From contig NC_057719.1 of NCBI RefSeq assembly GCF_004010195.1, forward strand, positions 37,451,777-37,490,373: a stretch of 38,597 bases of DNA. Reading direction: 5' to 3'. This document shows positions 8,577-36,865 of the stretch, in pieces (position 1 is the stretch's first letter; every line of letters begins with the position of its first letter). This DNA is from Chiloscyllium plagiosum (Eukaryota). The notes under the pieces were generated by a model. It had not been told where the DNA came from and made no database searches. It saw nothing but the letters and a program-made list of their open reading frames with translations. The position numbers were made by a program, and so were the translations under genes.

Positions 8577-8754
8577 AGTGTGGTGCTGGAAGAGCACAGC
8601 TGGTCAGGCAGCATCTGAGGATCAGGAGAATTGACATTTCAGGCATAAGCCCTTCATCATTCCTAATCCTCGGATGCTGCCTGACCTGCTGTTCTTTTCC
8701 AGCACCACATTCTTCGACTCGTGATCTCCAGCATCTGCAGTCCTCACTTTCTCC
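8577..8754 (+). mobile_element. Penelope-like family A fold-back insert with decayed hammerhead
   Basis: Inverted arm 8577-8658 (minus strand TGATGAAGGGCTTATGCCTGAAATGTC) is joined to a direct arm ending TCTCCAGCATCTGCAGTCCTCACTTTCTCC. Confidence 0.85.
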
Positions 8755-9010
8755 TATCCTCCTTTCCATTAGGTTGCATTCTCTACAAAGTTCACCTTAA
8801 TCAAAATACCACTGCTCATTTCCTGTCCTCTGCTAGTTATTATTTGTCTACTACAATTAAATTTGAACCAACTCTCTCCCAGAGTGTTAAGCTCTTCATC
8901 AAAGCCTTTCACAGCTTTGGTCATCACAGGCACTTCAATCTCCCAATCTTCAGTACATCTCCCGTTCCTTTCCTTTAACATGGCAGCAAAGCTATCCACC
9001 TGGCACCACT

Positions 9011-9367
9011 TAGAGTCATAGAGATGTACAGCAGAGAAACAAACCCTTTGGTCCAACTCGTCCATACGGACCAGATATCCCAACACATTCTAGTCCCACC
9101 TGCCAGCACCCGGCTCATATCCTCCAAACCCTTCCTACTCATTTACTCATCCAGATGCCTTTTAAATGTTGGAATTGTACTAGCCTCCACAACTTCCTCT
9201 GGCAGCCCATTCCATGCATGCACCACCCTCTGCATCAAAAGGTTGCCCCTTAGGTCTTTTCTTTATCTTTCCCCTCTCACCCTAAACCTATGCCCTCCAG
9301 TTCTGGAACTCCCCACCCCAGAGAAAAGACCTTGTATATTTCCCCTATCCATGCCTCTCATGATTCT
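9011..9367 (-). mobile_element. CR1 LINE 3' end
   Basis: TAGAGTCATAGAG tail and reverse of the 'QRVVHAWNGLP' region; similar to 31426-31772 and 33315-33768. Confidence 0.85.
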
Positions 9368-9887
9368 TGAAAGTCACATCATTAAACTAAATCACTTCTT
9401 TTCCTTAGTATGAAAGCATCCCCAAGATCCATTTTTATGATCGTTCAGATCTTAATTCTAATTATTTATTATCTTCATGGAATGTGAATGTTGCTGAAGA
9501 ACACGGGGATCATTTTTATGTTAAATGGTAAAGTCAAGTCCTCAGCTGCTGGTGGAGTACCTGCTGAAAGAAATGAGGCATTGGAAGTGTTAAAGTTTGC
9601 ATTCTTATAGTAAATCTATCTGAAGGCAGCTCAGCATTTAAAAGACCATGGACACAGCAAAAAATGATTAACTCCATGTCAATCAGTATTTTCAGCCAAC
9701 GCTCACACTCACAAAATCCAGGGCACCTGCTTGCATATTGCTTTCAGGCACTATATTTACTTTGATATGAAAAACAGTGCAGCTAAATAGTGCAAGGAGG
9801 TACATTGTAACTTAACTCCATGTGATAAATCTCTGCAACTGTAAAGCATGTGGCCCAGTGATTCTTACAGGTTAATAACACTGTATA

Positions 9888-10012
9888 GAAGAAGGACTCA
9901 TGCCTGGAACGTCGATTCTCCTGCTCCTTGGATGCTGCCTGACCTGCTGCGCTTTTCCAGCAACACATTTTCAGCTCTGATCTCCAGCATCTGCAGTCCT
10001 CACTTTCTCCCC
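9888..10012 (+). mobile_element. Penelope-like family A solo insert with 15-bp TSD
   Basis: TAATAACACTGTATA is duplicated at 9873-9887 and 10013-10027; the insert starts GAAGAAGGACTCATGCCTGGAACGTCGA (decayed hammerhead core) and ends with the family A tail. Confidence 0.9.
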
Positions 10013-11504
10013 TAATAACACTGTATACTCTACAGACGGCTACAGTCATGAATGCTGGGAAAGGAATTGTCCGACCAAGTCAAAGTTTCTTGAATTATTC
10101 CATCTCAAAGCACAACATAGTCATTTGCCTCTTTTGTTTTTGTGCAGGTTGTAGTTTTCTGATGCTTCAAAACTAAATATTCTGACCAAAACGCCTAAGT
10201 TTCTTTTCCTCACAATTCCATGGCAACATAAAGGTAGCAGAACAGCTATCTGGATTCTCAGTGTTTCATTTCAGCTATTGTAAGACAGAGAAAACTTAAT
10301 TAGTAAAACTCTCAGTGTCTTCTACATAAAAGGTCAAAAGTAAAACACGGCACTGAGCAACTACTCTCTAACATTGATCTCTGTTGTATATACTGTAATT
10401 GTAGCACATCAGCACCCCCACCCACCGATCTAAGAGTAAAGTAGTTTCAATTCACTGGAGCTGCTCATCTCTTCCTTCATGTGTGAAAGGGATTGCCAGA
10501 ACAACTAAATATAAATGTGCTCCTGCTATTTAAACACAGGCCCAGAACTGGAAACTAATGCTTATTTATGCCACATGACAAATATATCAGTTTATGAAGC
10601 ATGGAAATACTTTTTCATTCAATTGTATATTTAAGAATTAATAACTCAGTTACTCTTTTCATTCCCAATCATTGACATTGTAATATTTTATCTTTTTTCA
10701 CCTTCTGGGATATATAATTGCCTTGAAACTACAATGCCTAACATTTGTGGTGTAGATCAAACATAGCCTGAAGAGAACAGAAATATCTCATAAATTTCAA
10801 TTCTGTGTAGCAGTCAGCCATAAGCAACAAGCCTACAGAGTGCTCCTTTTCTGTCATTATTAACAATCACTGTCAATGCGAGTTCTTCCAGACTTGTATG
10901 AACACACCAATCTTTGCCATAATGGTAACATGTTCACAAGTCATAGACCAGATGTTCTTCCTGCTCAGCTGGAGATCAGAAGGGTGCACTTCCTCCCATA
11001 CCCTGCGCCGCCCACTCAATCCCACCCATTCCCCATACCTGGTGATTGTCAGCCTGACATTAAGAAATTAATAACCCAGGCATCTTTGTCTTTTTAGGGC
11101 CAGCATGCTATCAAATTGAGTGTACATCATGTGAAGAATATTTGAAAAACCATATAATTTCCAGATAGACTAATCATATGGTTATCTTTACTTGCCTCAT
11201 TTTTCTGTTCAACTTGGGGTTTGAGTTGATTCTAATTACAGACTACCAACAACATTCTAACAGTGTTAAAATCAGGTCTGTTTGCACTGCCCCCAGCGTA
11301 AATGTATTATTTCACAGCAACACAAACCCCACACATGCTTTACCTCCTTCAGCTTCCCTTTCTCATATAAACAACATGATTTTATGACTCAAACTCAGCG
11401 TCACTCAATCACTATTTTATGCCTCACTTTCTCTTCACAGTTTCTCTCTGGAGCCCCACAGTGCTTTAACAATCAAAAACAAATGGGTCCCAGTAAAACA
11501 CATG

Positions 11505-11662
11505 ATAAAAAGACATTTGGACAGGTACATGGATTGGAAAGGTTTAGAGGGATGTGGGTCAAATGTTGGCAAATGGGGCCAGTTCAGTTTAGGAAACCTG
11601 ATCGGCATGGACCAGGTGGGTCAAAGGTTCTGTCTCTGTGCTATATACCTCTATGACTCTAG
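11505..11662 (+). mobile_element. CR1 LINE 3' end fragment
   Basis: KRHLDRYMDWKGLEG peptide, then GGCATGGACCAGGTGGGTCAAAGG...CTCTATGACTCTA tail. Confidence 0.8.
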
Positions 11663-12139
11663 GATACCCATACAGATGGAAAGAAAGATTTGGGATGTAC
11701 GGCACAACGCAGTATGTAGTTCTTTGTTAACACTCATTTCTAAAAGATCTGTTGAAAATTCACCTGTTTTCTCACAAGAGCTTTGTTTTATAAAATTACA
11801 TTACTTCGTTTAAATCAATGCAAAGTGAAATAAGTGAATAATTCAGTAAATGTATTGGCACACTCACAAAACCAACCTACATGGTTACGTTACTGATACC
11901 ACCAATAGTGATGGTGGTTGCAGTTAACTGGCTGAAACAGGTACTGCGGAGTAGTTCAATGGTTTCAAAATTGGATCTCTGGAGTCTCTGTTTCTCCAGT
12001 CCTGACAGGCCACCCACCCACTGCAATTTTCACAACAGCCATTTCAGCACCTGTCTTGATCAGAGCATGCACAATATTTCACTGGCATGAGAGGAGAAAG
12101 ATTCTAGAAAGGTAAGCTTTACAGTTGGTTTTGAGAGCT

Positions 12140-12345
12140 CACAAATGGCGGTGAGAGAATGGAATTCACTACAACAAGGAGGGGAGTAATAAATGCATTT
12201 AAGGGGTAGATAGAAAAGCATTTGAGAATTACAACTATAGAATTAGACATGGGAAGGAAGGTCAACTTCAGCATAAACATTGGTGTGGAGTGGTGAGGTG
12301 GGATAGCCAGTCTCTTTGCTGCATATCCTGTGTATTACAATGTAA
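12140..12345 (+). mobile_element. Highly degraded CR1 3' fragment
   Basis: GGTGAGAGAATGGAATTCACTAC...ATGCATTTAAGGGG...AGCATAAACATTGG resembles the CR1 'WNSL..AFKG' region and 3' UTR. Confidence 0.5.
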
Positions 12346-13272
12346 TTTGGTTACCACTGCAAACCAGATTCTATCCTTTGATATTGTCTATTGACACCTC
12401 AAACTCACCCCCAGCAAATCCTTTCTACCTTTGAGTTGACCAATACCCCCATGGCCAAAGATTGGCAAGCTGCTTTGGAATGACCATCCCGAAGTTCACC
12501 AGCTGAATTCAAATGAAGCCCATGCATCAAAATCACAGCAACATCCTCTTTGTTGAAATGGACAGTCACCCTCTGGACCCTCCTGTTCAGGAGCCCAAAA
12601 GAGACAGAATCTACTACACAGGGCCCTGCAGTATGAAAGAAAGTTTGATCTACTGCAACATAACAATGAAAAACAAGGAATTAAGGAAACTGTAATCAAA
12701 TAAAATGTTGCATAATACATTGTACAACGGCAACTTGAATTCATATAGCACCTTGAATGTAGTAAAATGTCCCAAAGAGTACAAGGGAAACTCCGATCAC
12801 TTAAATCTTCCTTGAATACAGATATTATGTTGTCTGTGAAACTCGTGTCCAAGTCAAACACATAATTTGAATATACAAAGCAACTTTTCTTCAGATCAGA
12901 ACCCGCCTTGACTTAGACAAAATTCACACTGATTTCACTGCATGGCACTTCTACCTCAGATCGTATGAGCTTACAACAAACACAATTTAATCAGATGCAC
13001 CAACTACAAATCTGTAAGGGTTACAGAACCATCATCTGATGCAACTAAAATGATTTTAAGTTATGGGAAAGCCTAACAACTTTCCAGGTTTGAACACAAA
13101 AGCGATTTCAAGCTGAAAGTGGCCTAGCTGAGAGAACAGGCGAGTCCGTGTTGCCTGCTTTCCAGGAGCTGCCATACCTTTAAACACGGCACAGGGCTGG
13201 ATCGAAATTCCCCTCTGATTAGATCTGTCTCTACACAGGCCAACAGCAAAAAGCTCAGATGGTTGTATTTAC

Positions 13273-13339
13273 CAGTGCAGAACTGCAGCAGCGAGGAGGT
13301 GTCGTAGAGGCTGCTGTAGCCTGAGAACCCGTCCTCCAT
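13273..13339 (-). CDS. EML1: EML1 (echinoderm microtubule-associated protein-like 1) first coding exon, 67 nt
   Basis: Translates MEDGFSGYSSLYDTSSLLQFCT, near-identical to the recalled human EML1 N-terminus MEDGFSSYSSLYDTSSLLQFCN; phase-1 donor G|GTAAAT at 13273/13272 fits the following Asp codon. Exon 2 was not found in the window. Confidence 0.93.
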
Positions 13340-14100
13340 CCTCAAGCCGAACCCTCCCGTCTCTCCGTTACTTAGTTTGCCCGCCACAGGAGCTGTCCCC
13401 CATTCACGATCCAGTTTTCCGGGGGCTCCCTGCCAGTGTCAGTTACCATAGCAACCCATTCAGTTTCTCTTTCCCCGTTTTCCACAGCCTCTCAAATATA
13501 ACAAAATGTTTCCCTCTTGAGGCTTTGCACACTCAAAGCCACAGCCCAGAGGCTTCCAGAGGGAGCGGACCTGCAGCAAACCAGAGAGAGAGAGAGAAAA
13601 CGCTGGGATGTTTCAGACAGCGAGGGAGAGGGACTGCCAAACTGTGTCTCTAGTTCCTGCCTGTCGGTAATCTTAGACCAGTAAAAACAGGACGAGCATC
13701 CTTTCAAAATACAGCCAGGAAAGCCCGGGCCAATAAGCTTGCAGCAGCCGAGCAGCTGATGGTGGAGGGCTGTGGAAACTCGGCGTGAAAATCGAACCGA
13801 GCCCAGGACTCGGGAGCAACTTGCGGGAGGGAATCTACAGGAATCTCCCTGCCTCAACATACGATCAAGCAGCCATTTCCATCAGCTCATATCTGTCCCA
13901 GCAGCAGGCACTCTTAACCAGCTGATCGCAAACAGGTTTGGAAAAGCTAGCCCAAGCGAAGACGAAGGCGTTATGTTGCTTCATCCACCATTGCTTGGGA
14001 TCGTTTTGGGCAATGCGGTGCTAGTTTGTAATTTTTGTACAAACTCGATTCAGCGTTAGCGGACTGTAAACCGAACACCTCCCGAAAAGTGCAGGACTTT
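13340..14100 (-). promoter_or_regulatory. CpG-rich promoter/5' UTR region of EML1
   Basis: Many retained CpGs relative to the CpG-depleted flanks; repeat-free; CCAAT at 13730-13734; (GA)n at about 13583-13596; lies directly upstream of the EML1 ATG. TSS unknown. Confidence 0.7.
13442..13455. promoter_or_regulatory. RFX X-box motif
   Basis: GTTACCATAGCAAC matches the X-box consensus GTNRCC-N0-3-RGYAAC, about 100 bp upstream of the EML1 ATG. Confidence 0.7.
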
Positions 14101-14764
14101 TATTCTAAAATGCTTCCTAAGTATTTCCATTCATTCAGCAGCAGGCCCTGCAATTTATTCGAAGACATTGCCTGGGGAATATTTGGGATTTGGCTTCTGT
14201 GATAGGATTTTTCTCAAGACATAAAAAACTTAATTAAGTTTAGTTGTAGCTTATAATTGTTAAAAGCAATGGAAGCTGCATTTCAGCTGATTTTTTTTTT
14301 CATTTTAATTCCCAAGTCGATTCCTGCAAATTTGTCTCTAGCTTATTGCTTCTGTATGTACACTTAAACATAAACTCAATAGGCAAAACAGCTCTAATAC
14401 TTGGCAAGGCCACAAGAGAGGTAATGGTGGAGAGTAATTCCCTGGAGGGCCTGCCTGGAATAGCCAGTACATACGCCTCTGTTTTGTAATGTTAGCGTGC
14501 CCACAGCCCATGAATATCATTTTTAAAATGCTTCAGAAATAAAGTCTGCTGAACTAAAATCTAGCAAATCATTAAAATTAACTTTGCAGAATTTCCAGTG
14601 TCTTTTCTGAGACATTACGTGTAATTCTACCAGATGAATGAATGTAGTAAGATGCAATAATGGTTGAAATACAATCCCCAGAGCAGATGCAGAGTTTAAG
14701 AAGAAATTTGGTTTTGTTAGGAAGCCAATGCTTGGATAGTGTGGTTTTCTTTTAAATGGAATCA

Positions 14765-14870
14765 TGTTGAACTTGAAATGTTAACTCTGTTTCTGTCTCC
14801 ACAGATGCTGTCAGACCTGCTGAGTTTCTCCCAACACTTTGTTTTTATTTTAGAAGCTGCAGTACTTTGT
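14765..14870 (+). mobile_element. Old Penelope-like terminal-repeat fragment
   Basis: GAAATGTTAACTCTGTTTCTGTCTCCACAGATGCTGTCAGACCTGCTGAGTTTCTCC...CTGCAGTA shares the GATGCTG.C.GACCTGCTG block with family A. Confidence 0.6.
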
Positions 14871-15054
14871 ACATTACTTTGTGATGACACCTGTTTAATT
14901 AGATAGCCATGCAAGTAGGCCAAATATCAATGAAGGATAATGTTCACTGAAATAATTCAAAATATGAACAGATGATCCTGTGTCACAAAGCAGAACTATT
15001 GTGTACCAATACTGCAGAATCACATTAAAATCACGCTGCTTCTTTGGTACATGA

Positions 15055-15225
15055 AGAAATAAAGACTTGCATTTATAACGAATGTTTCACAGGAAGCCCC
15101 AAAGCTCTTTGCAGTTAATGAAGAACTTTTGAAATGTAATGTAATGTTGTAATGTAAGAACATTGCTTATGTGTGCGTTAGCACTGATCAACTTTCATTC
15201 TATTGTTAGTAGATAATTGGCCCCA
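15055..15225 (-). mobile_element. Deu-domain SINE 3' part, degraded
   Basis: GACTTGCATTTATA...CCCAAAGCTCTTTGCAGTTAATGAAGAACTTTTGAAATGTA...TGTTGTAATGTAAGAA is the reverse of the tail seen at 3890-3975. Confidence 0.6.
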
Positions 15226-15879
15226 AAGGTCTGCTCTCTAACAGTTTCACTTACTCTTTCAATACCCTGGCACTTTGAATACTTGCATCATTTCTAATTC
15301 CAAGCAGTTGATAAATTTTCCTTGACTACTCAAAGAGTTGCTGAGGAAATGATTCTTTTTCTCTAACTCACTCTGCACCTCCTCCAATTGTAACTCCTGA
15401 AATCAAATTAGCTCATCTAACATAGATGTAGGCTTGTTTGGAAAAAGTCACTGATTGGAAAAATAGATTCTAAAAACAAACAAACCTCTTTTTTGTCCCA
15501 GTTACTTTTCTGGCATTTGAATAATTATATGAATTATACTTGTATATTTGTTAGGGTTATGATAAAATAATATTTATGCAATTTTCCCATACATAATGAG
15601 TGGAAGGGCAGTTCCATCTCAAGCACTATAAAGCGAGAGGGAATAACGAAATAGATCAGAAAGAACAGAAGAGAAACAGAAAAGTCCTGATGGTCTGTTA
15701 ATAAAATACCACAGCATATTTGAAGTAACTATGCTGTAGAATATGCTACCAGCCCATGTGGATAGCTGCAGTAGATTCCCTCCCGCAATGACTGAGTCAT
15801 CCTTGTACGTTGTGATAGATCAAACATTGAGGAGTTGTCTATCTCATCACTGGACAAATAGCATTGTTGAATGCAATCA

Positions 15880-16145
15880 GGCAGATGCCAGTGCAGTTCA
15901 GGATGGAGCATTACATTACTGGGGGTATCATCTTCAAATAATATCTTTAACATGCATTGTCAAACAGACACAAAAACACCATGGCACCAGTCACACAGCG
16001 TGGAATTCACTTGCTATCTTGTCAATGTTTCTTTGATTCACCATCACCAATTACAGCTTAACTGGTCATTGTTTCATTTTTTGTTGGTTGAATGTTGCTG
16101 AATACAAATTGGAAGCTACATTTGACTTCATAACAACAGTGACTG
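15880..16145 (+). mobile_element. Deu-domain SINE, highly degraded
   Basis: CAGTGCAGT...AAAACACCATGGCAC...ACTGGTCATT...CAAATTGGAAGCTACATTTG...ATAACAACAGTGACT. Confidence 0.45.
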
Positions 16146-16329
16146 TTGTAACCTCAGATACCATCGCTGCTAGCATGTAGTGGTCTGATTTGGGTAACCC
16201 TATGCCCACAATCTTCCTTTCTCTATGATGGGTCTAGCACTTGGCTAAGTATCAGTGGTATGGGAGAGACCACAAGTGACTCTAAACAGAACCTGTGTTG
16301 GGCTGGTAATTTAGAGTTTGGGAAAAGGT

Positions 16330-16615
16330 TGGGGGGGGGGGGAGGAATTGTTGAAAAATTAGGGGTTTCCCATTTAAGACTGAGATATTTTTCTCTTGGG
16401 GATCAGGGGATTCTCTTCACCAGAGAGCATTGATTATATGGAAAGCTGAAGTTAGGCAGAATTTTAATCAACAGGGGAGTCGAGTGTTATGAGGGGTGGT
16501 GTAGGTAGAAAAATGGAAAAGGCCATAATCAGATCAACCATGATGTTATTGGATGGTTAATCAGGCTCAAAGGTCTGAAAAGCCTACTTCTGCTTCTATT
16601 TTTTTATGTTCTTAC
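16330..16615 (+). mobile_element. Degraded CR1 3' end
   Basis: CCATTTAAGACTGAGAT...GGCCATAATCAGATCAACCATGATG...CAGGCTCAAAGGTCTGAAAAGCCTACTTCTGCTTCTATT...TTATGTTCTTA. Confidence 0.65.
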
Positions 16616-17854
16616 ATAACAAAGTAGTTTATTGCATGATAGCAACAGTTCAGTTTACATTACTAATTAGCCATAATTACAAAGAACTCATGGGAGCAGT
16701 ACAGAATACACTTGCTCCCTTTGCCGACTTGTGCAGAACTCCTCTGTCTCCACCCAAAGATTGTGCGATGTCACCAGATTGGTGGAGCTCAGTATAACAA
16801 GAACATTAAGTCTTTCAGAACCATTACTTCATACACAATGACTACACTAGTAGCAATTCATTAGTCAAAAGCACTACATACATGTAAAATAAAGAAATAA
16901 TGTTGCAAGTGCAAGAACTGGAGTTCAAGAAAAATCAAACAATTTTAAATGCATTGCAGAAGTTGGATTTGGATTTCTAACATTACCAAGAGCTGAACTA
17001 TACCAAACCACTGAAAGTCTTCAGGTTTGACGCCTTTCTGTGCTGAATTAGCTGATCTCATGGAAAGCATAAGGGAGACTGTGATTGACATTACCATCCC
17101 TGCATTAGAAACTGACTGTTACACCCATCCCTATTCTATATCAATTTCTTATGGAAGTGTGTGGACATAGATTGACATAGATTGAGTCCAGGCTAACATT
17201 CAGATTTATTGCCCCATTAAATACAATGACCTGTTAGCAATCAAGTTCTTTCCATGCTTGAGAAAGGCAGTAGAAACGATGGCACATTCAATTATTCCTG
17301 GTATACAATTCAATGAAAAGATGGGTAACACTGAAAACATGACGTGTTGTCAGCAATTCCAGTGCAAGGATTACCCAAATTGCATTGCTAATGCAAGGAA
17401 CAAAAATGTTTTCCTTGATGTAATCTCATTGTTAGACCTAGAAAGCTATAGCTTCTATATTTTTGACTCATGGCCTGATTAGTTAGCTCACTGCAATGTT
17501 GTATAGTCAAGAGTACAATCTTTCATAAGCAGGATGCAAAAGCCAAAATTATTGATAGAAGGAAATCCAGTTTACTCTGCAGACGTACACCAGTATATCC
17601 TGCTGCTGACCCATGCCAATCTAATTTTACACAGCAGCGTTTATTTGTTGATGGATGGAATCATAACCTACACACACCTACTTTTTATGGCTTTCTTTAA
17701 ACTTAGTATTTGTTTGTTTTACCCAAGTTGTTTTTTTTCCACTTTCTGAATAATGCACATTTATGCTCCCATCTCTTTCTCATTATTACTGAAATCCCAA
17801 CAAATATTAATTCCCTCCATGCCTCACAGATTATGCTACTGTAGGTCCCTTTTG

Positions 17855-17964
17855 TGGCAGCGCTTCTAAAGCTTGAAATTTCAAATAAGCTTGTTGGGCT
17901 ATAACCTGGTGTTCTGTGACTGCCGACTTTGTCCTTCCTAGTCCAATACTGGTGCCCCAACATC
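17855..17964 (+). mobile_element. Penelope-like family B fragment, degraded
   Basis: GCAGCGCTTCTAAAGCTTG...AAATAAGCTTGTTGGGCTATAACCTGGTG...AGTCCAATACTGG aligns with 35597-35700. Confidence 0.7.
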
Positions 17965-21640: not shown

Positions 21641-21666
21641 CACTCAAAACTGTAATTATGCTTCAG

Positions 21667-21860
21667 GATTTGGAGATGCCATTGGACTGGGGTGTACAAA
21701 ATTAAAAATCACACAACATCAGGTTATAGTCTAACAGGTTTAATTGGAAGTACTAGCTTTCAGAGCACCGCTCCTTCATCAGGTGGTTTCAACCGCTCCG
21801 AAAGCCAGTGCTTCCAATTAAACCTGTTGGACTATAACCTGGTGTTTTGTGATTTTTAAC
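21667..21860 (-). mobile_element. Penelope-like family B fold-back insert with 12-bp TSD and hammerhead motif
   Basis: ATTATGCTTCAG at 21655-21666 and 21861-21872; minus 21751-21785 reads CAC CTGATGA A GGAGC GGT GCTCT GAAAG CTA GTA; the inverted arm restarts at GCTCCGAAAG (21795). Confidence 0.9.
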
Positions 21861-22219
21861 ATTATGCTTCAGAGCTACCTAATTGGCTGGAAAGCATATC
21901 CTGAAATTTTGGAAAGGTGCCATATAAAATCAAGGGCTGAGTGTTTTTTTTTTGACTAAGTCTGAATTGATTCAAGCTTTTTTGGAGGTTTGTAGCAGTG
22001 TGGATTAGCAAGTTCGTGCACCCACATCTTATCAATTGTATTGCATCAAATACTTACCTCACCCCAGGACATCTCTCACATCTGATTCCTGCCACATCAT
22101 CCGACATGCCATTTATAGAACTACCCCACCACCAGCGGATATCATGGAATTCATCAACATTCCAAACAACCTGTAAAAGCCCACTCTGCACCCAGCCAAG
22201 ACCTGTAAGTCTAGAGCAG

Positions 22220-23360
22220 CTTTGCATAGTAAACTAATGGAAAAAGTGAAGTCACATGGCATGCAGTATGTTCTAGATAGGTGGATAAAGAACTGGCTGA
22301 GCAACAGGAGACAGAGAGTAGTAGTTGAAGAGAGTTTCTTGAAATGGAGAAAGGTGACCAGTGGTGTCCCACAGAGATCAGTGCTGGGGCCTCTGTTGTT
22401 TGTGATATACATAAATGATCTGGAAGAGGGCAGTGCTGGTCTGATCAGTAAGTTTGCAGATGACATAAAGATTGGTGGAGTAGCAGAAAGCATAGGAGAC
22501 TGTCAAAGAATATAGGAGGAGATAGATAGACTGAAGAGTGTGGCAGATGGAGTTCCATCCAGGCAAATGTGAGGTGTTGCATTTTGGGAAGACTAATTCC
22601 AGAGCAAACTATACTGTAAACGGAAGAGCCTTGGGAAAAGTTAATGAGCAGAGAGATCTGGGAGTTCAGGTCCATTATACCCTGAAGGTGGCTGCATAGG
22701 TGGATAAAGTGGTCAAGAAGGCATATGGTATGCTTGGCTTGATCGGACGGGGTATTGAGTATAAGAGCTGGCAAATCATGTTAACATTGTACGAGACTTT
22801 GGTTCAGCTGCATTTAGAATACTGTGTACCATTCTGGTCACCACATTATCAAAAGGATGTGGGCACTTTGGAGAGGGTGCAGAGAAGGTTAACGAGGATG
22901 TTGCCTGGTATGGAAGGTGCTAGCTATGAAGAGAGGTTGAGTAGGTTAGGATTGTTTTCATCAGAAAAAAGGAGATTGAGGGGGTGTCTGATTGAGGTCT
23001 ACAAAATCATGAAGGATATAGACAGGGTGGATAGTGGTAAACTTTTTCCCAGGGTGAGGGACTCAATAACGAGAGGTCACACATTCAAGGTGAGAAATGA
23101 AAAGCTCAAGGATGATACATGCAGAAAGTACTTTACACAGAGGGTGGAAGGTGCCTGGAATGCGTTGCCAGCAGAGGTATTAGAGACAGGCATGGTAGAT
23201 TCATTTAAGGTATGTCTGGACAGATGCAAGAATAGGTGGGGAGCAGAGGGATATAGATTCTTAGGAATTGGGCAATAGATTTCGACAGTGGATTTGGATC
23301 AGCTCAGGCACGGAGGGCCAAAGGGCCTGTTCCTGGGCTGTAAATTTTCTTTGTTCTTTG
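22220..23360 (+). mobile_element. CR1 LINE, 5'-truncated (RT domain to 3' UTR)
   Basis: [83 protein letters not shown] tail; frameshifted. Confidence 0.95.
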
Positions 23361-26765: not shown

Positions 26766-27510
26766 AAGAGTCATGCTGCAGTTATAGAAACCCCTTGACT
26801 TCACTTAGAGCACTGCAAACAGATCTGGGCACCAGACTTCAGAAGGATATCAGAGGAGCCGAGAAAAATAAAATCGACATTTCAGGCAAAAGCTCTTCAT
26901 CAGGAAACATCGATTTTTCCTGTTCCTCAAATGCTGCCTGACCTACTGTGCTTTTCCAGCACAACTCTAATCTTGACTCTAACCTTCAGCATCTGCAGTA
27001 CCCACTTCTGCCGTTCAGAAGGATATACTCACTTAAGAAAGAATACAATGCAGATTTACAATAACAATACCTGAGCTTCAGGAATTATGTTAAGAGGAGA
27101 TATTGTACATACTAGGCCTGTTTTCACCTGAACATAGAAAGTTAAAGGGTGATCTGATTGAAATCTTCAAAATATTCACAGTAAATAACACGGTAGATAA
27201 AGATAAATTAATTCCACTGGTTCAAGGTTCTATAATTAGGGAACATGGTCTGAAAATTAGGGTCAGACCATTCAGGAGAGATGTTGGGAAGCACACAAAG
27301 GGCTGTAGAAGTTTGAAACTCTCTTTCAGAAATGATTGATGCTAGAGCAGTTGTTAATTATAAATCTGAGATAAGTAGATTTTTGTTAAGCAAAATATAT
27401 TAAGAGATATGAGTCAAAGGCTCATAAATGTAGTTAGCCCACTGATCAGTCATGATCTCATTGAGTGGTGGAACAGACTTGAAGGGCTGAATGAACCTCC
27501 TCTGCTTTCC
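26766..27510 (+). mobile_element. CR1 LINE 3' region, interrupted by a PLE insert
   Basis: LGLFSPEHRKLKGDLIEIFKI peptide and CR1 3' UTR (GATCAGTCATGATCTCATTGAGTGGTGGAACAGACTTGAAGGGCTGAATG). Confidence 0.85.
26851..27013 (+). mobile_element. Penelope-like family A fold-back insert with 13-bp TSD
   Basis: TTCAGAAGGATAT at 26838-26850 and 27014-27026; inverted part (minus CCTGATGAAGAGCTTTTGCCTGAAATGTCGAT) is fused directly to GAAACATCGAT of the direct arm. Confidence 0.88.
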
Positions 27511-28026
27511 TCAATTCTTGTTAAAATGCGTGGACTCTTGTCCTCTCCACGTTTAAATTTATCAATTATCGAATCACCAACATCCATTCCCCCACATTGT
27601 GCTACTTTCTATCTTAAATACTGTTACATCCATTATGATCTCTGCTTCTATATCTCCTGGATAAGTACAATACCAAGTAATTACTCAATATTTCCACATT
27701 TTGTGGTCATTAGCTGTGAGTTTATCACGTGCATTCTATAGTTACTATATCCCTATCCTGAAGCTTATTAACCTGGCTGCAGAATATTTCACCAATTATC
27801 CAGTGGAGCCAGGTAGCAAGTTGATGCCAAATGTTCCAGTGAGTGATCGAGAGAAACATTGACCTAGATCTTCCAGTTGCTGGATCATCAGAGACGGGAT
27901 GTGTGATCCAAGATAAGCATCTGTACCCTGTGGGAGTTCCAATGCACAAACTCCATGGGAATTGCTTGGGAAGCTTAAACTTCCAACTGAGAATGTCACA
28001 GCTCCCCAGGCTCTTCCAAAAAGGTC

Positions 28027-28233
28027 AAGATCAGAGTGGTGCTGGAAAAGCACAGCAGGTCAGGTAGCATCTAAGGAGCAAGAAAATCGACGTTTCGGGC
28101 AAAAGCCTGATGAAGGGTTTTTGCCCGAAACTTCGATTTTCCTGCTCCTCAGATGCTGCCTGACCTGCTGTGCTTTTCCAGCATCACTCTAATCTAGACT
28201 CTAATCTCCAGCATCTGCAGTACTCCCTTCTGC
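28027..28233 (+). mobile_element. Penelope-like family A palindromic insert with 14-bp TSD
   Basis: CTTCCAAAAAGGTC at 28013-28026 and 28234-28247; about 80-bp arms (28028-28107 and 28116-28195); core CTGATGA(28107-28113)..GCCC GAAA CTTC; 38-nt tail. Confidence 0.92.
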
Positions 28234-28859
28234 CTTCCAAAAAGGTCTCCGACTCTGATTCAGAAACTTTGCACAGTTCTGATTTACTTACCTGGATAGT
28301 TACACAGGAAACGTGAGTAACTAAATGATCAATCCTTTCTTCTTGCCTATCCACTTGAGGCCATGACCAGGCTTCCCTCCATACCCCCACTGATCTGACC
28401 CGACTACCCACCTCGCCATTCTGGCACCCCACTTTACCCAATCACTTACCTCCCTTATCCTGCCCACTTAGATTCCTGCACATTCTCCTATCCAGCCATT
28501 CACTCACACCCTGAAAAGCTATGTTTCAGGCATTGGAGAAAGAATACTTTACAGATTACAGCAGCTAATACTGTAAAAAGCTGTTTTGCTAAAACAGTCA
28601 AAAAATCAGAACTTGAGGTCTGTGTTGGCTTAAGGGAAATGCCATATAAGTTTCAGCAGCTGGGTCATGGATGGGTGGATCTGAAATGAAACACCAATAT
28701 AGCTGTGGCAATACTTTCCCACAAGTTAATCATCATTGTAATTCAAAAGTAATTCACTGTGTGCAGGACTTTGAGATATATTTGATTACATAATTAAGGA
28801 AAGACATTGCAAGTTTTTTTTCAGAATGAAATTTAGTTATGAGACACAGTAAATTGCTT

Positions 28860-29535
28860 GGATGGGAACAGGTTTGCACATAAGGACAAAGTGACTGAAC
28901 AAAAACAATGGTAAATGAACTTCAGTGTGGGAAAGAATGAAATGTGGCTCTAGGAATATTTTCTTGATATTAAAAGAGGAGTTTCTATGGAGAAGGGAAA
29001 GAATTTAGGTGTCCATTTTACAAAAGTCACTAAAATCTAGTGCACAAAATGAAAAAGTAATTATAAACATTAAATAATATCTTGACATTTACTTCAGAGA
29101 GTTGGAAATCAAGCATTTTAAAAAGTGTGCATCACAGCCCATGGAGTATTATAGTTCAGTTTTGGACTCTATACCTCAGGGGAGAATACAGGACAAATTC
29201 ATTGGATTTCTTAAGTAGTGCTTAAGGGTTTAGTCACAAGGATATATACATAAAAATGCCTTGTATTCTCTTGAAGATTGAGGGATAATCCAACTCATAT
29301 TTAATATTTTAAGCAACTTGATCAGGTGGATACAGAAAAATCATTTCTACTAATGGGTACATCTAGAATAATTAGAATCAGGCAATTAAAGCACATTTTT
29401 CCAAATTTAGAACTTGCTCCAACAGAATGACTTTTGCTTGGTTATTTTGGGAACGAATATTGAGTGATGTGGAACAAGATGTGTTGAGATATAGATCAGC
29501 TAGGATTAGCTAACTGTCAAAACAAGCTCAACAGC
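28860..29535 (+). mobile_element. Highly degraded CR1 3' region
   Basis: ATGGTAAATGAACTTCAGTGTGGGAAAG, GAATTTAGGTGTCC...AAGTCACTAAAATCTAG and GTTCAGTTTTGG motifs colinear with the other CR1 copies. Confidence 0.6.
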
Positions 29536-30252
29536 AATGTATTTTGTTTACTCATGGGATATGAACAGTGCTAGCTGACCACTATTTATTGCCTAATCCT
29601 AGTTGCCGTTGAGAAGGTGGTGGTGAGCTGTCTTCTTGAACTATTGCAGTCCATGTGCTGAAAGATGACCGACAATGACCTTAGGGAGGGAATTCCATGA
29701 TTTTGACCCAGCCACAGTGACAGAATGGTGACATATTTCTAAGTTAGGATGGCGAATGGCTTGGAGGAGAACTTGCATGTGATGATGTTCCCAAACGTCT
29801 ACTGTCCTTGTCCTTCCAGATAAAAGTGGTTGTAGATTTGGAAAGTGCTGTTTAAGGACCTTTGGTGAATTTCTGCTGTGTGTCTTGTATATAGTACACA
29901 CAGCTGCTACTGAGCATTGGTGGTGGAGGGAGTGAATGTTTATAGATGTGGTGCCAATCCAGCTGTCTGCTTTGTCTTGGATGGTATCAAGCTTCTTGAG
30001 TGTTGTTGGAGATACACCCATTCAGGCAAGTGGGGAATATTCCATTACACTCCTTATTTGTGCCTTGTAGATGGTGGATAGGCTTTGGACAGTCAGGCGA
30101 TGAGTAACTCCCTACAGTATTCCCAACCTGTGATCAGTTCCGGTTGTCACTGTATTTACATGGTGAGTCCATTTGAGTTTCTGGTCAATGGTAACCCCCA
30201 GGATGTTGATAATGGAGTATGCCGTGATGGTAACACCTTCAAAGGGAGGTAA

Positions 30253-31370
30253 TTTGATCTGAAAATGTGTTGCTGGAAAAGCACAGCAGGTCAGGCAGCA
30301 TCCAAGGAGTAGGAGAATCGATGTTTCGGGCATAAGCCCTTCTTCAGGAATGAGGAAAGTGTGTCCAGCAGGCTAAGATAAAAGGTAGGGAGGAGGGACT
30401 TGGGGGAGGGGCGTTGGAAATGCGATAGGTGGAAGGAGGACAAGGTGAGGGTGATAGGTCAGAGTGGGGGGGGGGGCGGAGAGGTCAGGAAGANNNNNNN
30501 NNNNNNNNNNNNNNNNNNNNNNNNNNNNNNNNNNNNNNNNNNNNNNNNNNNNNNNNNNNNNNNNNNNNNNNNNNNNNNNNNNNNNNNNNNNNNNNNNNNN
30601 NNNNNNNNNNNNNNNNNNNNNNNNNNNNNNNNNNNNNNNNNNNNNNNNNNNNNNNNNNNNNNNNNNNNNNNNNNNNNNNNNNNNNNNNNNNNNNNNNNNN
30701 NNNNNNNNNNNNNNNNNNNNNNNNNNNNNNNNNNNNNNNNNNNNNNNNNNNNNNNNNNNNNNNNNNNNNNNNNNNNNNNNNNNNNNNNNNNNNNNNNNNN
30801 NNNNNNNNNNNNNNNNNNNNNNNNNNNNNNNNNNNNNNNNNNNNNNNNNNNNNNNNNNGTGGGGTGTGTGGACCTGACGAGGGAGTCACGGAGGGAGTGG
30901 TCTTTTCGGAACGCTGATAGGGGAGGGGAGGGAAATATATTCCTGCTGGTGGGGTCCATTTGGAGGTGGCGGAAATGATGGCGGATGATACGCTGTATAT
31001 GGAGGTTGGTGGGGTGATAGGTTTCCTCATTTCCCCTCCCCCCACCTTGTCTCAGTCAAATCCCTCGAACTCAGCACCACCTTCCTAACCTGCAATCTTC
31101 TTCCTGACCTCTCCGCCCCCACCCCCACTCCGGCCTATCACCCTCACCTTGACCTCCTTCCACCTATCGCATTTCCAACGCCCCTCCCACAAGTCCCTCC
31201 TCCCTACCTTTTATCTTAGCCTGCTGGACACACTTTCCTCTTTCCTGAAGAAGGGCTCATGCCCAAAATGTCGATTCTCCTGCTCCTGGATGTTGCCTGA
31301 CCTGCTGCGCTTTTCCAGCTACACATTTTCAGCTCTGATCTCCAGCATCTGCAGTCCTCACTTTCTCCTC
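30253..31370. mobile_element. Penelope-like retroelement family A, inverted configuration with ORF remnant (contains assembly gap)
   Basis: Minus 30859-31022 encodes TYHPTNLHIQRIIRHHFRHLQMDPTSRNIFPSPPLSAFRKDHSLRDSLVRS (PLE RT-to-GIY-YIG linker); 30259-30493 is the reverse complement of about 31098-31332; hammerhead motifs at 30318-30349(-) and about 31243-31274(+); GAGGTAA flanks both sides. Confidence 0.9.
30494..30858. other. Assembly gap (365 N)
   Basis: Run of N. Confidence 1.
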
Positions 31371-31425
31371 GAGGTAACTAAGATCATCTCTTACTGGAGA
31401 TGGTTATTGCCTTGCATTTGTGTGC

Positions 31426-31772
31426 TTTATAAAATCATGAGGGGCACGGGTAGCGTGAATAGCCAAGGTATTTTTCCTAGGGTGGGAAGTCGAAAACCAG
31501 AGGGCATAGGTTTAAGGTGAGAGGGGAAGGATTTAAAAAGGATGTGAAGGGTAACATTTTCACACAGAGGGTGGTGTCTTTCTGGAATGAGCTGCCAGAG
31601 GATGTGATGGAGGTGGGTAAAATTACAACTTTTAAAGGGAACTGGATGGGTATAGGAAGGGTTTAGAGGGATATGGGCCAAATGCTGGCAAGGTCCCATT
31701 TGGGATGTTTATCCAGCGCAGATGAATTTGACTAAAGGGTCTGTTTCCATGCTTTTTGACTCTATGATTCTA
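31426..31772 (+). mobile_element. CR1 LINE 3' end
   Basis: YKIMRG..FTQRVVSFWNELPE peptide and GACTCTATGATTCTA tail. Confidence 0.88.
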
Positions 31773-31871
31773 AATATTATTTGCTACTTGTCAGCCCAAG
31801 CTTGGATATTGTCCAGATCTTGTTGCATTTGAACATGGATTACTTCATTATCAGAGGAGTTGCAGATGGTT

Positions 31872-32187
31872 TTAGATGAGATTACTTACAGTGTGGAAAC
31901 AGGCCCTCCGGCCCAACAAGTCCACACCGACCCTCCGAAGAACAAGCCACCCAGACCCATTCCCCTAAATTTACCCCTTCACCTAACACTACGGTCAATT
32001 TAACATGGCCAATTCACCTAACCTGCACATTTTTGGGCTGTGGGAGGAAACTGGAGCACCCGGAGGAAACCCACGCAGACACCGGGAAAATGTGCAAACT
32101 CCACACAGACAGTTGCCCGAGGCGGGAATTGAACCTGGGTCTCTGGCACTGTGAGGCAGCAGTGCTAACCACTGTGCCACTGTGCTG
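31872..32187 (-). mobile_element. HE1-type tRNA-derived V-SINE
   Basis: Minus strand: GTGGCACAGTGGTTAGCACTGCTGCCTCACAG (A box), GGTTCAATTCCCGCC (B box), V-domain TGTGTGGAGTTTGCACATTTTCCC..TGCGTGGGTTTCCTCCGGGTGCTCC and a CR1-like tail. Confidence 0.9.
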
Positions 32188-32191
32188 TAGC

Positions 32192-32305
32192 TACCTGAGG
32201 AAGGAGCAGCGCTCTGAAAGCTAGTGCTTCTAAATAAACCTGTTGGATTATAACCTGTTGTTGTGAGATTTTTAATTTTCTCCACTCCACTCCAATACCG
32301 ACCCC
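32192..32305 (+). mobile_element. Penelope-like family B solo insert with intact-core hammerhead motif
   Basis: TAC CTGAGGA A GGAGC AGC GCTCT GAAAG CTA GTG (32192-32226), followed by AATAAACCTGTTGGATTATAACCTG. Confidence 0.85.
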
Positions 32306-33238
32306 ATCACATTATACCTTCTTGCTAAGCCTCCTTCCAGTGTTAATGCTACTTGAATTACTGCATGGGATAGTTCACAAATTCTCACCTGACTTGGTTT
32401 TAAAATATGGAAGGCTACATTTCCTCTGCATTTGCACTCAGACCTGACATAATCTGATTAGAAATCAATGACATGGTTTGGTGATGTGAGATTACAAAAA
32501 AAATGAAAGAAACAGTATAATTGAGTAATCAAAGAGTAACTACAAAAGAATCTGAAGGGAATTGTTCTATGACCATTGGCAGAAGTGAAGCAAGTCCATT
32601 CGAGTAAACTTGAATTATATTCCCAGATTCACAAAGTATTTTACCATACAGCCAATGACTTTTTTCTAATGTGAAGAATGTGTCAGATTTATCAAAAAAT
32701 ATAGTCACTTACTCATAGTAAAGCCTTACACAATTTAAATAAATGAATGTTGAGATAAATGTCTCTGTCTGTAATAGTATAGCTAGGTGGAACCTAGCTT
32801 GCCTAATTTCAATAGGAGCCTGGAGATGAATGGGTATTAATACCATTGCAAACACAGGGAAGTTGCACAGATGTTTATTTAATGTCATGGAGGTAAAAAT
32901 TAAACATCAGCATCTACTAGTTGGTAGTACCATGTCAGCCACAAAGAATTTGACTTGTGACATATGGTCATTTCACTTCTGTGATTGATTGTAACTATCC
33001 TTATCTGGGATTGAGATGATAGAACTAAAGAGGCCACAGGAAAGAGCAGAGTCAAAGCTGTGTTCATGGATAGCTTATGTAGAGTGAGTGGTGAAGTGAA
33101 ACAGCAGGGAGAGGATAAGGTGAGCTCAAATGGATCATCCTGTAATGAAAAATCACTCAGAGCAGAGGCAGAGAAAGACCAGTATTTGTATCATGTCTTT
33201 CACAACCACTGGCCAACTCAAAGTGTTTTGTCACCATA

Positions 33239-33310
33239 CTAGGTAAGATCTTCAGTGAGCCTCACTGAAGATGTTACCTAGTTATAGCGACGAAACGTCT
33301 GAAAACCCAC
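33239..33310 (+). mobile_element. Penelope-like family C fold-back fragment with hammerhead motif
   Basis: 21-bp inverted arms 33239-33259 and 33261-33281 (1 mismatch); TCA CTGAAGA T GTTAC..GCGAC GAAAC GTC TGA at 33262-33302. Confidence 0.75.
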
Positions 33311-33314
33311 ATCC

Positions 33315-33768
33315 ACAAGGATGCTGCCAAGGTTGGAAGGTTTGAACTATAGGGAGAGACTGAACAGGCTGGGGCTGTTTTCCCTGGAGCATCGGAGCCT
33401 GAGGGGTGACCTTATAGAGGTTTATAAAATCATTAGGGGCATGGACAGAGTCAGCAAGGTCTTTTTCCCGGGGTGGGGGAGTCCAAAACCAGAGGGAATA
33501 GGTTTAGGGAAAAGAGTTAAAAGGGACCTAAGGGGTAACTTTTTCATGCAGACGATGGTGCGTGTATGGAATGAGCTGCCAGACAGTGTGGAGGTTGGTA
33601 CAATTACAACATTTATAAGATATCTGAATGGGTATATGAATAGGAAAGGTTTAGAGGGATTTGGGCCAAATGCTGGCAAAAAGGACTAGATTAATTTAGG
33701 ATATCTGGTCGGCATGGATGAGTTAGACTGAAAGGTCTGTTTCTGTGCTATACATCTCTCTGACTTTA
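33315..33768 (+). mobile_element. CR1 LINE 3' end
   Basis: TRMLPRLEGLNYRERLNRLGLFSLEHRSLRGDLIEVYKI..VWNELP peptide and CR1 3' UTR. Confidence 0.92.
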
Positions 33769-33791
33769 AGGCTGTTATTGTCCTAGAAAAT

Positions 33792-34141
33792 GGTGGTACA
33801 GTAGCTCAGTGGTTAGCACTGCTGCCTCACGGTGCCAGGAACCCAGGTCTGATTCCAGCCTCAGGAGACTGTGTGGAGTTTTCACATTCTCCCCATGTTG
33901 CGTGAGTTTCCTCCAGGTGATTAGTTTCTTCCTATGTACAATGGATGCACAGGTTAGGTGGATTGGCCAAGCAAAATTGCTGGTAGTGTCCAGGGATGTG
34001 TAGGCTAGGTGAATTAGCCATGGGAAATGCGGGGTTACAGCAATGGGGTGGGTCAAGGTGAGATGCTCTTTTGAGGGTCGGTATGCACTTGATGGGCCAG
34101 GTAGTGTCTTTCTGCACTGTAGGGATTTTATGATTCTATGA
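33792..34141 (+). mobile_element. HE1-type tRNA-derived V-SINE
   Basis: A box TAGCTCAGTGG (33802-33812), degenerate B box, V-domain TGTGTGGAGTTTTCACATTCTCCCCATG, tail CTGTAGGGATTTTATGATTCTATGA. Confidence 0.88.
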
Positions 34142-35030
34142 AAATATAACATGACAAACATCAGGTGAGCACTGGTTTGGGCTTAAGTGTCAGGCATATC
34201 CCCTGCCCAAGCCCATCGTGGTAAAATAGTAACATTTCTTAGTCAAACTTATACACAGTGAAATGCTACAATGTTAGAGGTCAGCATATTGTGCGAGGAA
34301 AGGTAAAACTATATACACAAAAAATCTACAGATCTGATACAACATCACAGTATTAACAGAGCAATGACTTTTTTGTGACTTAACTTTAACTTCATTTCTG
34401 CACAGTATATCCTGTCAAAGTGAAAATCAAGGTGTTATCTTGCTTTTCTTGACAAGTTAAAGATTACAGATAAAAGTGTACTCAATGGAGGAACAGAGAA
34501 AAGACTGCCACTGATCATTAAACATCTTAACTGTCATCACTCCTGCTGCATTCAATTTATTGCTGTATTCTTACCTTAAGACAAGAAATTAAAATGGAGA
34601 ATTCACTGTTTGGATTTTGAGAACCAATGCTGATGGCATTCTCCAATCTAAAATAACTGATCATTAACTCGGCAGACACCAAGAACAAGACACTACAAAG
34701 TTGAGTCTACTGTCAGGTTTGTTAAAAATGCCTCTTATGGAAAGTCAGTGCACATTTCAGTGACTGTGCTGACAAGCCTAAATAAGAAATCTTGAGGTGG
34801 AAGCAAACACATCTGGCAGTACAAAATGACCCCTTCTGTTTTAAGTGTTCTGACTAAGTGTTGTGACAATAGTTCAGGCATCACCACAGTGAAATGAGAT
34901 GGCCATGTGTGATCACAGCTTGTACATACTTGAATAATTAAAATTTGGAGATGCCGGTGTTGGACTGGGGTGTACAAAGTTAAAAATCACACAGCATCAG
35001 GTTATAGTCCAACAGGTTTAATTGGAAGCA

Positions 35031-35065
35031 CACTAGCTTTCGGAGCGACGCTCCTTCATCAGGTG
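35031..35065 (-). ncRNA. Minimal type I hammerhead ribozyme motif (family B, intact)
   Basis: CAC CUGAUGA A GGAGC GUC GCUCC GAAA G C U A GUG: complete core, perfect 5-bp stem II, 3-bp stem I, stem III reduced to palindromic AGCU. Activity not shown. Confidence 0.75.
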
Positions 35066-35291
35066 GTAGTGGAGGGCTCAATCCTAACACACAGAATTTA
35101 TAGCAAAAATTTACAGTGTGATGTAACTGAAATTATACATTGAAAAATTGATTGTCTGTTAAGCCTTTCATCTGTTAGAATACAGTGATAGTTTCATTTC
35201 TTTCATGTGTAAATCACAAAACCCTTTTTTTAAAGTTGCATTCTCGGGTTAGCTGTTAACAATGATGATAGCTAAACAATATGTTAAAGGT

Positions 35292-35490
35292 AAAAAAGGT
35301 AAAAACAATGACTGCAGATGCTGGAAACCAGATTCTGGATCAGTGTTGCTGGAAGAGCACAGCAATTCAGGCAGCATCCGAGGACAGGCAAAATCGACGT
35401 TTCGGGCAAAGGCTTTTGCCCAAAACGTCGATTTTGCCTGTCCTCGGATGCTGCCTGAATTGCTGTGCTCTTCCAGCAACACTGATCCAG
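35292..35490 (-). mobile_element. Young Penelope-like family A near-perfect palindrome nested in the family B element
   Basis: 79-bp arms 35332-35410 and 35415-35493 with one mismatch; TSD AATATGTTAAAGGT at 35278-35291 and 35491-35504 (first 3 nt shared with the arm); 40-nt tail at 35292-35331. Confidence 0.93.
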
Positions 35491-35946
35491 AATATGTTAA
35501 AGGTGTTAGCCCCCTGTGTTCTCTGTCTATGACCTGATGTTTAGATTGATTCTAATCTAAAAAGTGAGATAACAGAGTTTTACATAAATTCACTAGCTCC
35601 GAAAGCTAGTGTCCTTCCAATTAAACCTGTTGGACTATAACCTGGTGCTGTGTGATTTTTAACTTTGTACACCCCAGTCCAACACCGGCATCTCCAAATC
35701 ACCTTAACAATGGTGATAGCTATTGTCTAGCTATTGTCCAGCTATCACCATTGTTAACAGCTAACCCGAGAATGCAACTTTTTAAAAAAAGGTTTTGTGA
35801 TTTACACATGAAAGATGTGAAACTATCACTGTATTCTAACAGATGAAAGGCTTAACAGACAATCAATTTTTCAATGTATAATTTCAGTTACATCACACTG
35901 AAAATTTTTGCTATAAATTCTGTGTTACGATTGAGCCCTCCACAAT

Positions 35947-35981
35947 CACCTGATGAAGGAGCGTCACTCCGAAAGCTAGTG
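35947..35981 (+). ncRNA. Minimal type I hammerhead ribozyme motif (family B, intact core)
   Basis: CAC CUGAUGA A GGAG CGUCA CUCC GAAA G C U A GUG. Confidence 0.72.
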
Positions 35982-36414
35982 TGCTTCCAATTAAACCTGT
36001 TGGATTATAACCTGGTGTTGTGTGATTTTTAATTGAATAATTAAAGAGATTCAAACTGGTTCTTCCAGTTTTCTACTGAAAATAAAAGCAATGTCCACAG
36101 AGTACAATGAGGAAAAAAAGTTCTTGCAGTGATTGTCTATCTTTAGTCCGCCAACACACTTTTAAATATAAAAATAATGTTTTGTTTTCCAGCACCTTTT
36201 CATAAGGAAACAATCTGTATCGATAGATATAAAGGCTCAGAAAGAAACTGGCTTGACTTTGAGCACTCATGGTGTCAAGGGTGAGCTGCTTTTGTCAAAC
36301 CCAACAGAATACAGTGAGTGAAATCAATGACTGATTTCTGATACATGCTTTCAGTTGATGGAACTGCATTCGAAACAATAATAAGTAATTACTTCAATCT
36401 TAATGCGAGGCTAA

Positions 36415-36505
36415 GTCATACTGGACGCCAAATGTTAATTGATTTACTCTTCACAGATGCTGCCACACCTTCCTGAGTTTCTCCAATACTTTGTTTGCAT
36501 TTTAT
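36415..36505 (+). mobile_element. Old Penelope-like terminal-repeat fragment
   Basis: AAATGTTAA..CACAGATGCTGCCACACCTTCCTGAGTTTCTCCAATACTTTGTTT is similar to 14775-14850. Confidence 0.55.
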
Positions 36506-36781
36506 TTATGATAGAGACACCCTTCAGTACCCATGAACAGCTTGGCTGGCTGGACATGCAGGTGAAAGCTGTGTTAAAGTTTCCAATCATTAAAATGAAA
36601 AGCCAAGAAACCAGGAGCAGCTCGGTCCCAAATTTACCAAAAATATTTTTGCCAAGTTTTTACGCCCATGTACTTGAGAGGAAAATCTGCCGCCTACTGT
36701 CAACTTGGCTCAGTTGGTGGTACTCTTCAGAAGCTTATGCATTGATGCCGTGCTGTGTAAATTATTTGTTCAGACATCATT

Positions 36782-36865
36782 GAAAAGTGTGGTACTGGAA
36801 AAACACAGCTGGTCAGGTAGCATCCGAGGAGCAGGAGAGTCGACGTTTCCAGCATAGACCCCTTC
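36782..36865 (-). mobile_element. Penelope-like family A single arm
   Basis: GAAAAGTGTGGTACTGGAAAAACACAGCTGGTCAGGTAGCATCCGAGGAGCAGGAGAGTCGACGTTTC..CCCTTC; truncated within the hammerhead core. Confidence 0.85.

Follow-up and report, generated by a model that had tools for sequence, protein, structure and literature searches.

Minimal hammerhead ribozymes in Penelope-like elements (PLEs) were defined by Cervera and de la Peña (2014, PMC4209133) as motifs that need neither helix III nor loop 3 and have a palindrome at positions 15.2-16.2, and that study gives no cleavage for the monomer and low cleavage for the dimer. Its Fig. S3 has ACGU motifs in fugu, Xenopus and lamprey and AGCU in painted turtle, and a helix I of only 2 bp is given for Culex and D. 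virilis. According to a review (PMC6765202), Lünse, Weinberg and Breaker (2017) likewise found that PLE hammerheads with a short palindromic stem III cleave as dimers. For PAc, a Poseidon element of the green anole, hammerhead cleavage was protein-assisted and dispensable for insertion in vitro, and the reverse transcriptase (RT) begins at two internal sites that bound a tail (Frangieh et al. 2024, PMC11167929). Here we analysed a stretch of 38,597 nt from Chiloscyllium plagiosum (contig NC_057719.1, positions 37,451,777 to 37,490,373; hereafter the window), in which an initial annotation had read three repeat families, A, B and C, each with a hammerhead lacking stem III. We conclude that these motifs are very probably minimal hammerheads borne by the pseudo-long terminal repeats (pLTRs) of three PLE families. 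They survive in tens of thousands of 5′-truncated stubs, most of them dead, and the motif of the source element would cleave only weakly, when paired and likely with help from the protein that the element encodes. The ribozyme type itself was already published in 2014; what is added here is the host lineage and the large copy number.

The consensus motifs proposed for family A (TC CUGAwGA A GGGC-N4-GCCC GAAA CGUC GA), family B (CAC CUGAUGA A GGAGC-N3-GCUCC GAAA GCUA GUG) and family C (UCA CUGAAGA U GUUAC..GCGAC GAAA CGUC UGA) were all found in the window where they had been placed, and the indexing of the predicted cut sites, after 35978 in family B and after 33299 in family C, proved right. 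Exact-pattern searches of the whole 3.56-Gb genome gave 95,961 matches for A, 14,834 for B and 4,011 for C, and the reversed patterns, used as control, gave 0 for each family. In an unselected sample of 120 random 10-kb stretches (1.14 Mb without N), a generic, family-blind descriptor found 83 motifs vs 2 on reversed DNA, and the tetramer was ACGU in 43 and AGCU in 23 of them (together 66/83). The consensus of the unselected copies (A n=99, B n=63, C n=10) contains the core CUGANGA...GAAA..UH, with an unpaired base between 9 and 10.1 that is A in families A and B and U in family C. The closing pair G10.1-C11.1 is G-C in all common haplotypes of the three families, and the palindrome at 15.2-16.2, without loop 3, is ACGU in 52/99 copies of A and AGCU in 54/63 copies of B. 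Thus the core, the unpaired base after A9, the G10.1-C11.1 pair, the loop-less palindrome and the short helix I are all shared with the published minimal motif, as are the location in the pLTR and the predominance of solo or opposite-strand copies (PMC4209133). The number of copies differs, i.e. about 115,000 exact-pattern matches here vs 4,000-9,000 descriptor matches in coelacanth and Xenopus (PMC4209133), obtained with different methods.

Some structural statements of the initial annotation have to be narrowed. The palindrome and paired stems hold for the family consensus but not for most individual copies, and the tetramer cannot be called covarying, as a single double change separates the families (ACGU vs AGCU) and no compensatory change occurs within any of them. 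A stem I of 2-3 bp is correct in general, although one subfamily of A extends it to 4 bp. A covariance-model scan of the window with Rfam (E<=5) gave 9 matches, none of them to a hammerhead family. The words 'Shark', 'Callorhinchus' and 'Leucoraja' are absent from the searched supplement of PMC4209133 (file 1 outside the search), and a literature search for a shark-specific description of these hammerheads found nothing direct. The descriptor sample also held at least two further minimal-hammerhead families of this genome (loci L263, L277, L256 and L298), one of them with a U3-A8 core, and window positions 14776-14840 and 36448-36504 resemble 3′ fragments of a further minimal-hammerhead family.

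The families had been called unrelated. This misleads, because each of them is the pLTR end of a PLE that encodes an RT and a GIY-YIG domain, and the three PLEs are homologous. Among loci picked by protein alone, with the query locus excluded from the counts, the matching motif was located downstream and on the same strand as the RT/GIY-YIG open reading frame (ORF) in 17/29 cases for A, 23/29 for B and 20/29 for C. Pfam matches to RVT_1 (E 1e-5) and GIY-YIG (E 0.002-0.003) were obtained in 3/6 proteins, all under the curated cut-offs, and the ORF of family A has a GIY-YIG match that is likewise under the cut-off. The ORF of B is homologous to that of A (E 1e-12, spanning the GIY-YIG/linker region) and to that of C (E 5e-5). 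A CxxC finger in the linker (CX2-5CxxC) was read in the translations of the A and B ORFs, and none in C. Since this finger separates Neptune/Nematis from Poseidon (PMC8557442), families A and B would be Neptune-like by their linker motif alone, and family C appears Poseidon-like from its C-terminal GIY-YIG domain, its lack of a linker finger and an ORF start within the pLTR. Family C is laid out like PAc (PMC11167929): its ORF begins with an ATG at stem II, the cut site follows about 27 nt further on, and a tail of 35-40 nt separates the two 3′ ends. Unlike PAc, families A and B are Neptune-like and their start codons are likely downstream of the cut site.

Each of the three families has two 3′ ends 35-40 nt apart, corresponding to the PLE 'tail', and exactly one tail is present in 32/33 head-to-head pairs of A and 24/26 of B. 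The two arms of such a pair are more alike than random pairs in both families. Head-to-head arms, palindromic junctions and a tail on one arm have also been described for endonuclease-bearing (EN+) PLEs (PMC3846280, PMC8557442). Linkage to the ORF, ORF homology, the split by linker, the tails and the one-tailed inverted pairs together identify the three families as pLTR ends of related elements.

Two further observations concern the tails and the ORF of family A. In A, B and C, 7-9 nt of the tail are the complement of a segment a short way past the cut site, and the proximal 3′ end lies between the two (examples at window 34939-35010, minus, and 31285-31345, plus); there are 9 pairs at 93-99% in B (98 copies), 7 in C (38 copies) and 7 in A (7 copies only). 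Covariation of this stem within families is almost nil, and a consensus fold recovers it in A and C, not in B. At L201:1500-4000, a 33-nt unit over the linker finger of the family A ORF forms a long tandem expansion joined to a fragment of a long interspersed nuclear element (LINE), either a real expansion or an assembly artefact.

The copies in the window are as follows.

8577..8755: two family A arms joined head to head, each truncated or decayed.
9888..10011, plus strand: family A stub with a broken core and a tail.
17857..17961, plus strand: decayed 3′ fragment of family B.
21673..21874: head-to-head family B pair; the minus arm has a full core (21751-21785) and a tail, and the plus arm begins within loop II.
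26849..27013: head-to-head pair of family A in which the tetramer of the minus motif has decayed.
28027..28235: head-to-head family A pair; plus motif with a broken tetramer, minus arm without the 5′ core.
30237..31370: family A element; minus-arm hammerhead at 30318-30349 (tetramer decayed to ACAU), an assembly gap, an ORF fragment, and an inverted plus arm that has a tail and whose motif (31243-31274) is broken.
30861..31019, minus strand: 53-residue fragment of a Penelope-like ORF, from the RT thumb/linker region; the family A hammerhead lies downstream of it.
32192..32226, plus strand: family B hammerhead, core kept, G-U in place of G-C at 10.1-11.1.
33224..33306: family C; plus hammerhead at 33262-33302 (core and ACGU intact, a stem II mismatch, predicted cut after 33299) and a short inverted arm.
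34939..36032: inverted family B insertion, 3′ tail on the minus arm and none on the plus arm.
35031..35065, minus strand: flawless family B minimal hammerhead with 5-bp stem II, AGCU and 3-bp stem I.
35301-35497: inverted family A pair inside the family B insertion 34939..36032.
35596-35700: second truncated family B arm inside the same insertion.
35947..35981, plus strand: family B minimal hammerhead, core and AGCU intact; the outer part of stem II has 1 mismatch, and the cut is predicted after 35978.
35990..36010, plus strand: the hexamer ATTAAA at 35990-35995 as poly(A) signal of family B, the poly(A) site at about 36008-36010 (from tailed reads of family copies in RNA run X19), and a GU-rich tract after it.
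36779..36865, minus strand: family A stub truncated within the core.

Most of these copies are degraded. Ten family A copies in the window reach the tetramer, the 5′ core is present in 4 of them, and the core and ACGU occur together in 0; the core is kept in 4 copies of B and 1 of C, and 35031-35065(-) is the one copy in which core, stem II and stem I are all free of flaws. Among the unselected copies, core and palindrome are both intact in 42/99 of A and 31/63 of B. The tetramer of family A includes a CpG, and its decay resembles that of CpGs elsewhere (ACGU 52, ACAU 25 and AUGU 11 of 99). The initial annotation had named a lack of excess conservation of the core over the flanks as a refutation, and at the copy level there is no such excess: non-CpG core positions are conserved at 0.92-1.00 in the unselected copies, no better than the non-CpG flank, and these 5′ core figures are somewhat raised by the filter demanding a present 5′ part. 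This does not speak against the ribozyme, because the copies are dead and a lack of excess is expected. Differences between subfamilies are located at N7, loop II and outer stem I. Thus, selection acted on the source elements, and the copies decay neutrally.

To locate the 5′ ends of the stubs, copies were anchored downstream of the ribozyme and breaks were counted with C3 as coordinate 0; the set for A includes some copies of related families. Breaks of family A fall at -8..0 in 70/176 copies vs 10 at the cut site (+27..31), and those of family B at -10..0 in 32/85 vs 2 at +27..31, so that the per-base rate at the peak exceeds that of the neighbouring stretches about 9-10 times in A and 5-9 times in B. 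Inverted junctions alone give 42/77 (A) and 26/54 (B) in the peak. Thus the breakpoints of A and B have no spike of 5′ ends at the cut site that would be a sign of cleavage in vivo. In the whole genome, A and B together have 6,859 head-to-head junctions immediately 5′ of the core, against 85 at a family B control about 40 nt upstream. Family B alone has 167 junctions near the cut site; the number immediately 5′ of its core is about 1,500, extrapolated from the 11 B junctions among 50 listed. Of 50 listed junctions near the cut site, 8 centre on the AGCT palindrome, which we read as microhomology of DNA.

The letter preceding the break is also biased. Before A(-4) of family A, G was found 15,481 times genome-wide vs A 9,366 times, at background frequencies of 0.206 for G and 0.292 for A, and the local set had 17 G vs 3 A, with unrelated flanks in 11 of the 17 G copies. 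Before A(-8) of family B there were 67 G, 23 T and 10 A among the first 100 of 3,293 non-template matches listed. A subfamily with a templated G was ruled out, since the 11 non-inverted flanks are unrelated, and so was an origin of the pile-up from spliced RNA, as there is no AG before -4 and no common upstream exon. Reverse transcription, then, usually passed through the uncut site; for A and B, many of its stops fell 0-10 nt upstream of the core and left an extra G. An untemplated 5′ G has been linked to cap copying in L1 (PMC9341517), and the extra G before A(-4) and A(-8) likely reflects copying of an mRNA cap. We infer that the element RNA has its capped start at these pyrimidine-A steps, with A(-4) as the 5′ end for family A and A(-8) for B, and that this end is where the RT stops. 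The stubs would then be run-off cDNAs begun at the two known internal RT start sites, and a start so close to the core would limit the 5′ strand of helix I. By analogy with published work on other elements, two RNAs may pair through the tetramer and be cleaved with protein assistance; cleavage at the predicted site would remove the cap, together with the start codon in family C. A literature search found no paper on a PLE start at the ribozyme edge or on a cap G.

Several results weigh against this picture. In a search for full-length elements, the 20 loci that had long open frames proved to be gaps or local repeats in most cases, and 0 had two direct pLTRs around an ORF. The peak of breakpoints is about 10 nt wide, some non-inverted breaks of family A are, by eye, due to subfamilies missing among the references, and 6 of the 17 local G letters of family A derive from the inverted arm. 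Family C has no pile-up (1/13 copies within 15 nt of the core). PMC3846280 ascribes palindromes to self-priming of an antisense template; the junctions here cluster at the 5′ edge of the ribozyme with an extra G. In D. virilis the start lies 46 nt upstream of an intron that ends at helix I (PMC2377424, PMC4209133), and a start at the ribozyme edge is therefore not general. Regarding complete elements, no copy was found that runs from the tail into shared ORF sequence. Assembly gaps are frequent between inverted PLE arms (window 30495-30859; L202-L214), and full-length elements are therefore likely under-assembled.

RNA evidence came from one raw poly(A) run, X19, sampled at about 2%, in which 2,943 reads mapped, 26 of them at 99% identity or more, and whose organism may not be that of the window. 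Reads of family B have a roughly tenfold sense bias over the motif; their depth holds across the cut site (1,335 to 1,253) and drops to 536 past the poly(A) site, and long A tails occur on them at 36004-36010 (378 and 427 reads). AATAAA or ATTAAA precedes the site in 72/90 unselected family B copies, and none of the fetched loci has a genomic A run there. Thus, on the evidence of this one RNA run, the pLTR of family B holds a used poly(A) site about 30 nt after the cut site. The portions consulted of the PAc account (PMC11167929) map neither a transcription start nor a poly(A) site. For family A, no poly(A) site was found within 31130-31370 among the loose read ends listed for X19. No pile of molecule ends was seen in X19 for B or A, where the 3′-biased library says nothing on 5′ ends, and 0 reads mapped from the sister run X20. 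Uncut RNA is no evidence against activity of the dimer, because X20 is empty, the organism may differ and the reads stem from many decayed copies. The thousands of family B stubs may hand ectopic poly(A) sites to host transcripts and end them early.

Energies of the paired form were calculated for window copies. For the best copy of family B, the active dimer was at -18.3 kcal/mol vs -14.4 for two monomers with stem II only, and an inactive dimer reached -33.1; the active dimer of the window copy of family C scored +2.7 kcal/mol, and the family A copy at 30318 gave -6.4 vs -15.8 kcal/mol. In this calculation the active dimer would be marginal and not the minimum-energy fold, which fits weak, helper-dependent cleavage. 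The proposal of the initial annotation, that helix III cannot close in cis and that copies pair through the tetramer and cleave weakly or with protein help, thus agrees with the energies and with the literature, but it had already been published (PMC4209133, PMC11167929). By their sequences, most window copies should be out of reach of dimer formation, as they are mutated or have their nearby partner on the opposite strand.

A more far-reaching scheme can be drawn from the start and poly(A) positions, although we regard it as speculative and rather unlikely to hold in full. The hammerhead of A and B would be the first structure of the capped mRNA, with the poly(A) site of B 30 nt past the cut, and the ribozyme would thus lie in a repeat at both transcript ends, similar to retroviral R. 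The palindrome would clasp the two ends for a cDNA jump from the 5′ to the 3′ repeat, protein-assisted cleavage would be a feedback switch that removes the cap, and the stubs would be failed jumps.

An alternative that we consider improbable, and yet the strongest of those weighed, is that the pLTR retains the motif mainly for protein binding or folding, with incidental cleavage. The 5′ pile-up would then mark the edge of the bound protein, where the RT stops or a nuclease boundary lies, rather than a transcription start. Catalytic mutants were without effect on insertion in vitro and RNA-seq ends were absent from the cut site in PMC11167929, Naiads spread without hammerheads (PMC8557442), and breaks here show no excess at the cut site (for B junctions, the 167 vs about 1,500, extrapolated, given above). 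However, a stop or a nuclease boundary predicts no extra G before a pyrimidine-A step, and all letters of the catalytic core are kept across the three families despite their divergence; variation is seen at N7 and in loop II. We give far less credit to the stubs being a non-autonomous, retrozyme-like family that spreads via cleaved, circularised RNA. The very high copy number would suit it, and non-LTR retrozymes are described as PLE derivatives and occur in one sampled chondrichthyan (bioRxiv 10.64898/2026.07.22.740005), but the window has no tandem arrays of the motif, whereas retrozymes consist of tandem repeat units that each have a type I hammerhead, the stubs are solo or inverted, their ends are not at the cut site, the flanks upstream of them are unrelated, and same-strand neighbours within 1 kb are rarer than inverted pairs (10 vs 33 in A, 11 vs 26 in B). 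Convergence of three unrelated repeats on a new class of stem-III-less ribozyme, for which it may be said that flanks and stems share little sequence, can be dismissed almost entirely, as linkage to ORFs for homologous PLE RT/GIY-YIG proteins refutes it and the architecture is that of the published minimal consensus.

If, as we favour, the stubs are remains of PLE pLTRs, they are a fossil record of many thousand reverse-transcription events. By this record the template had as a rule not been cut, and its 5′ end likely lay just upstream of the core. The breakpoint and G data give exact positions for the predicted RNA starts.

Much of the remaining repeat content of the window consists of LINE-like ORF fragments, which we take to be of CR1 type, and copies of short interspersed nuclear elements (window 22200-23360 and 37160-38597). 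Near a GC-rich stretch, a short exon with a start codon and a splice donor lies at 13271-13339 on the minus strand; it resembles the first coding exon of EML1 and may correspond to it.

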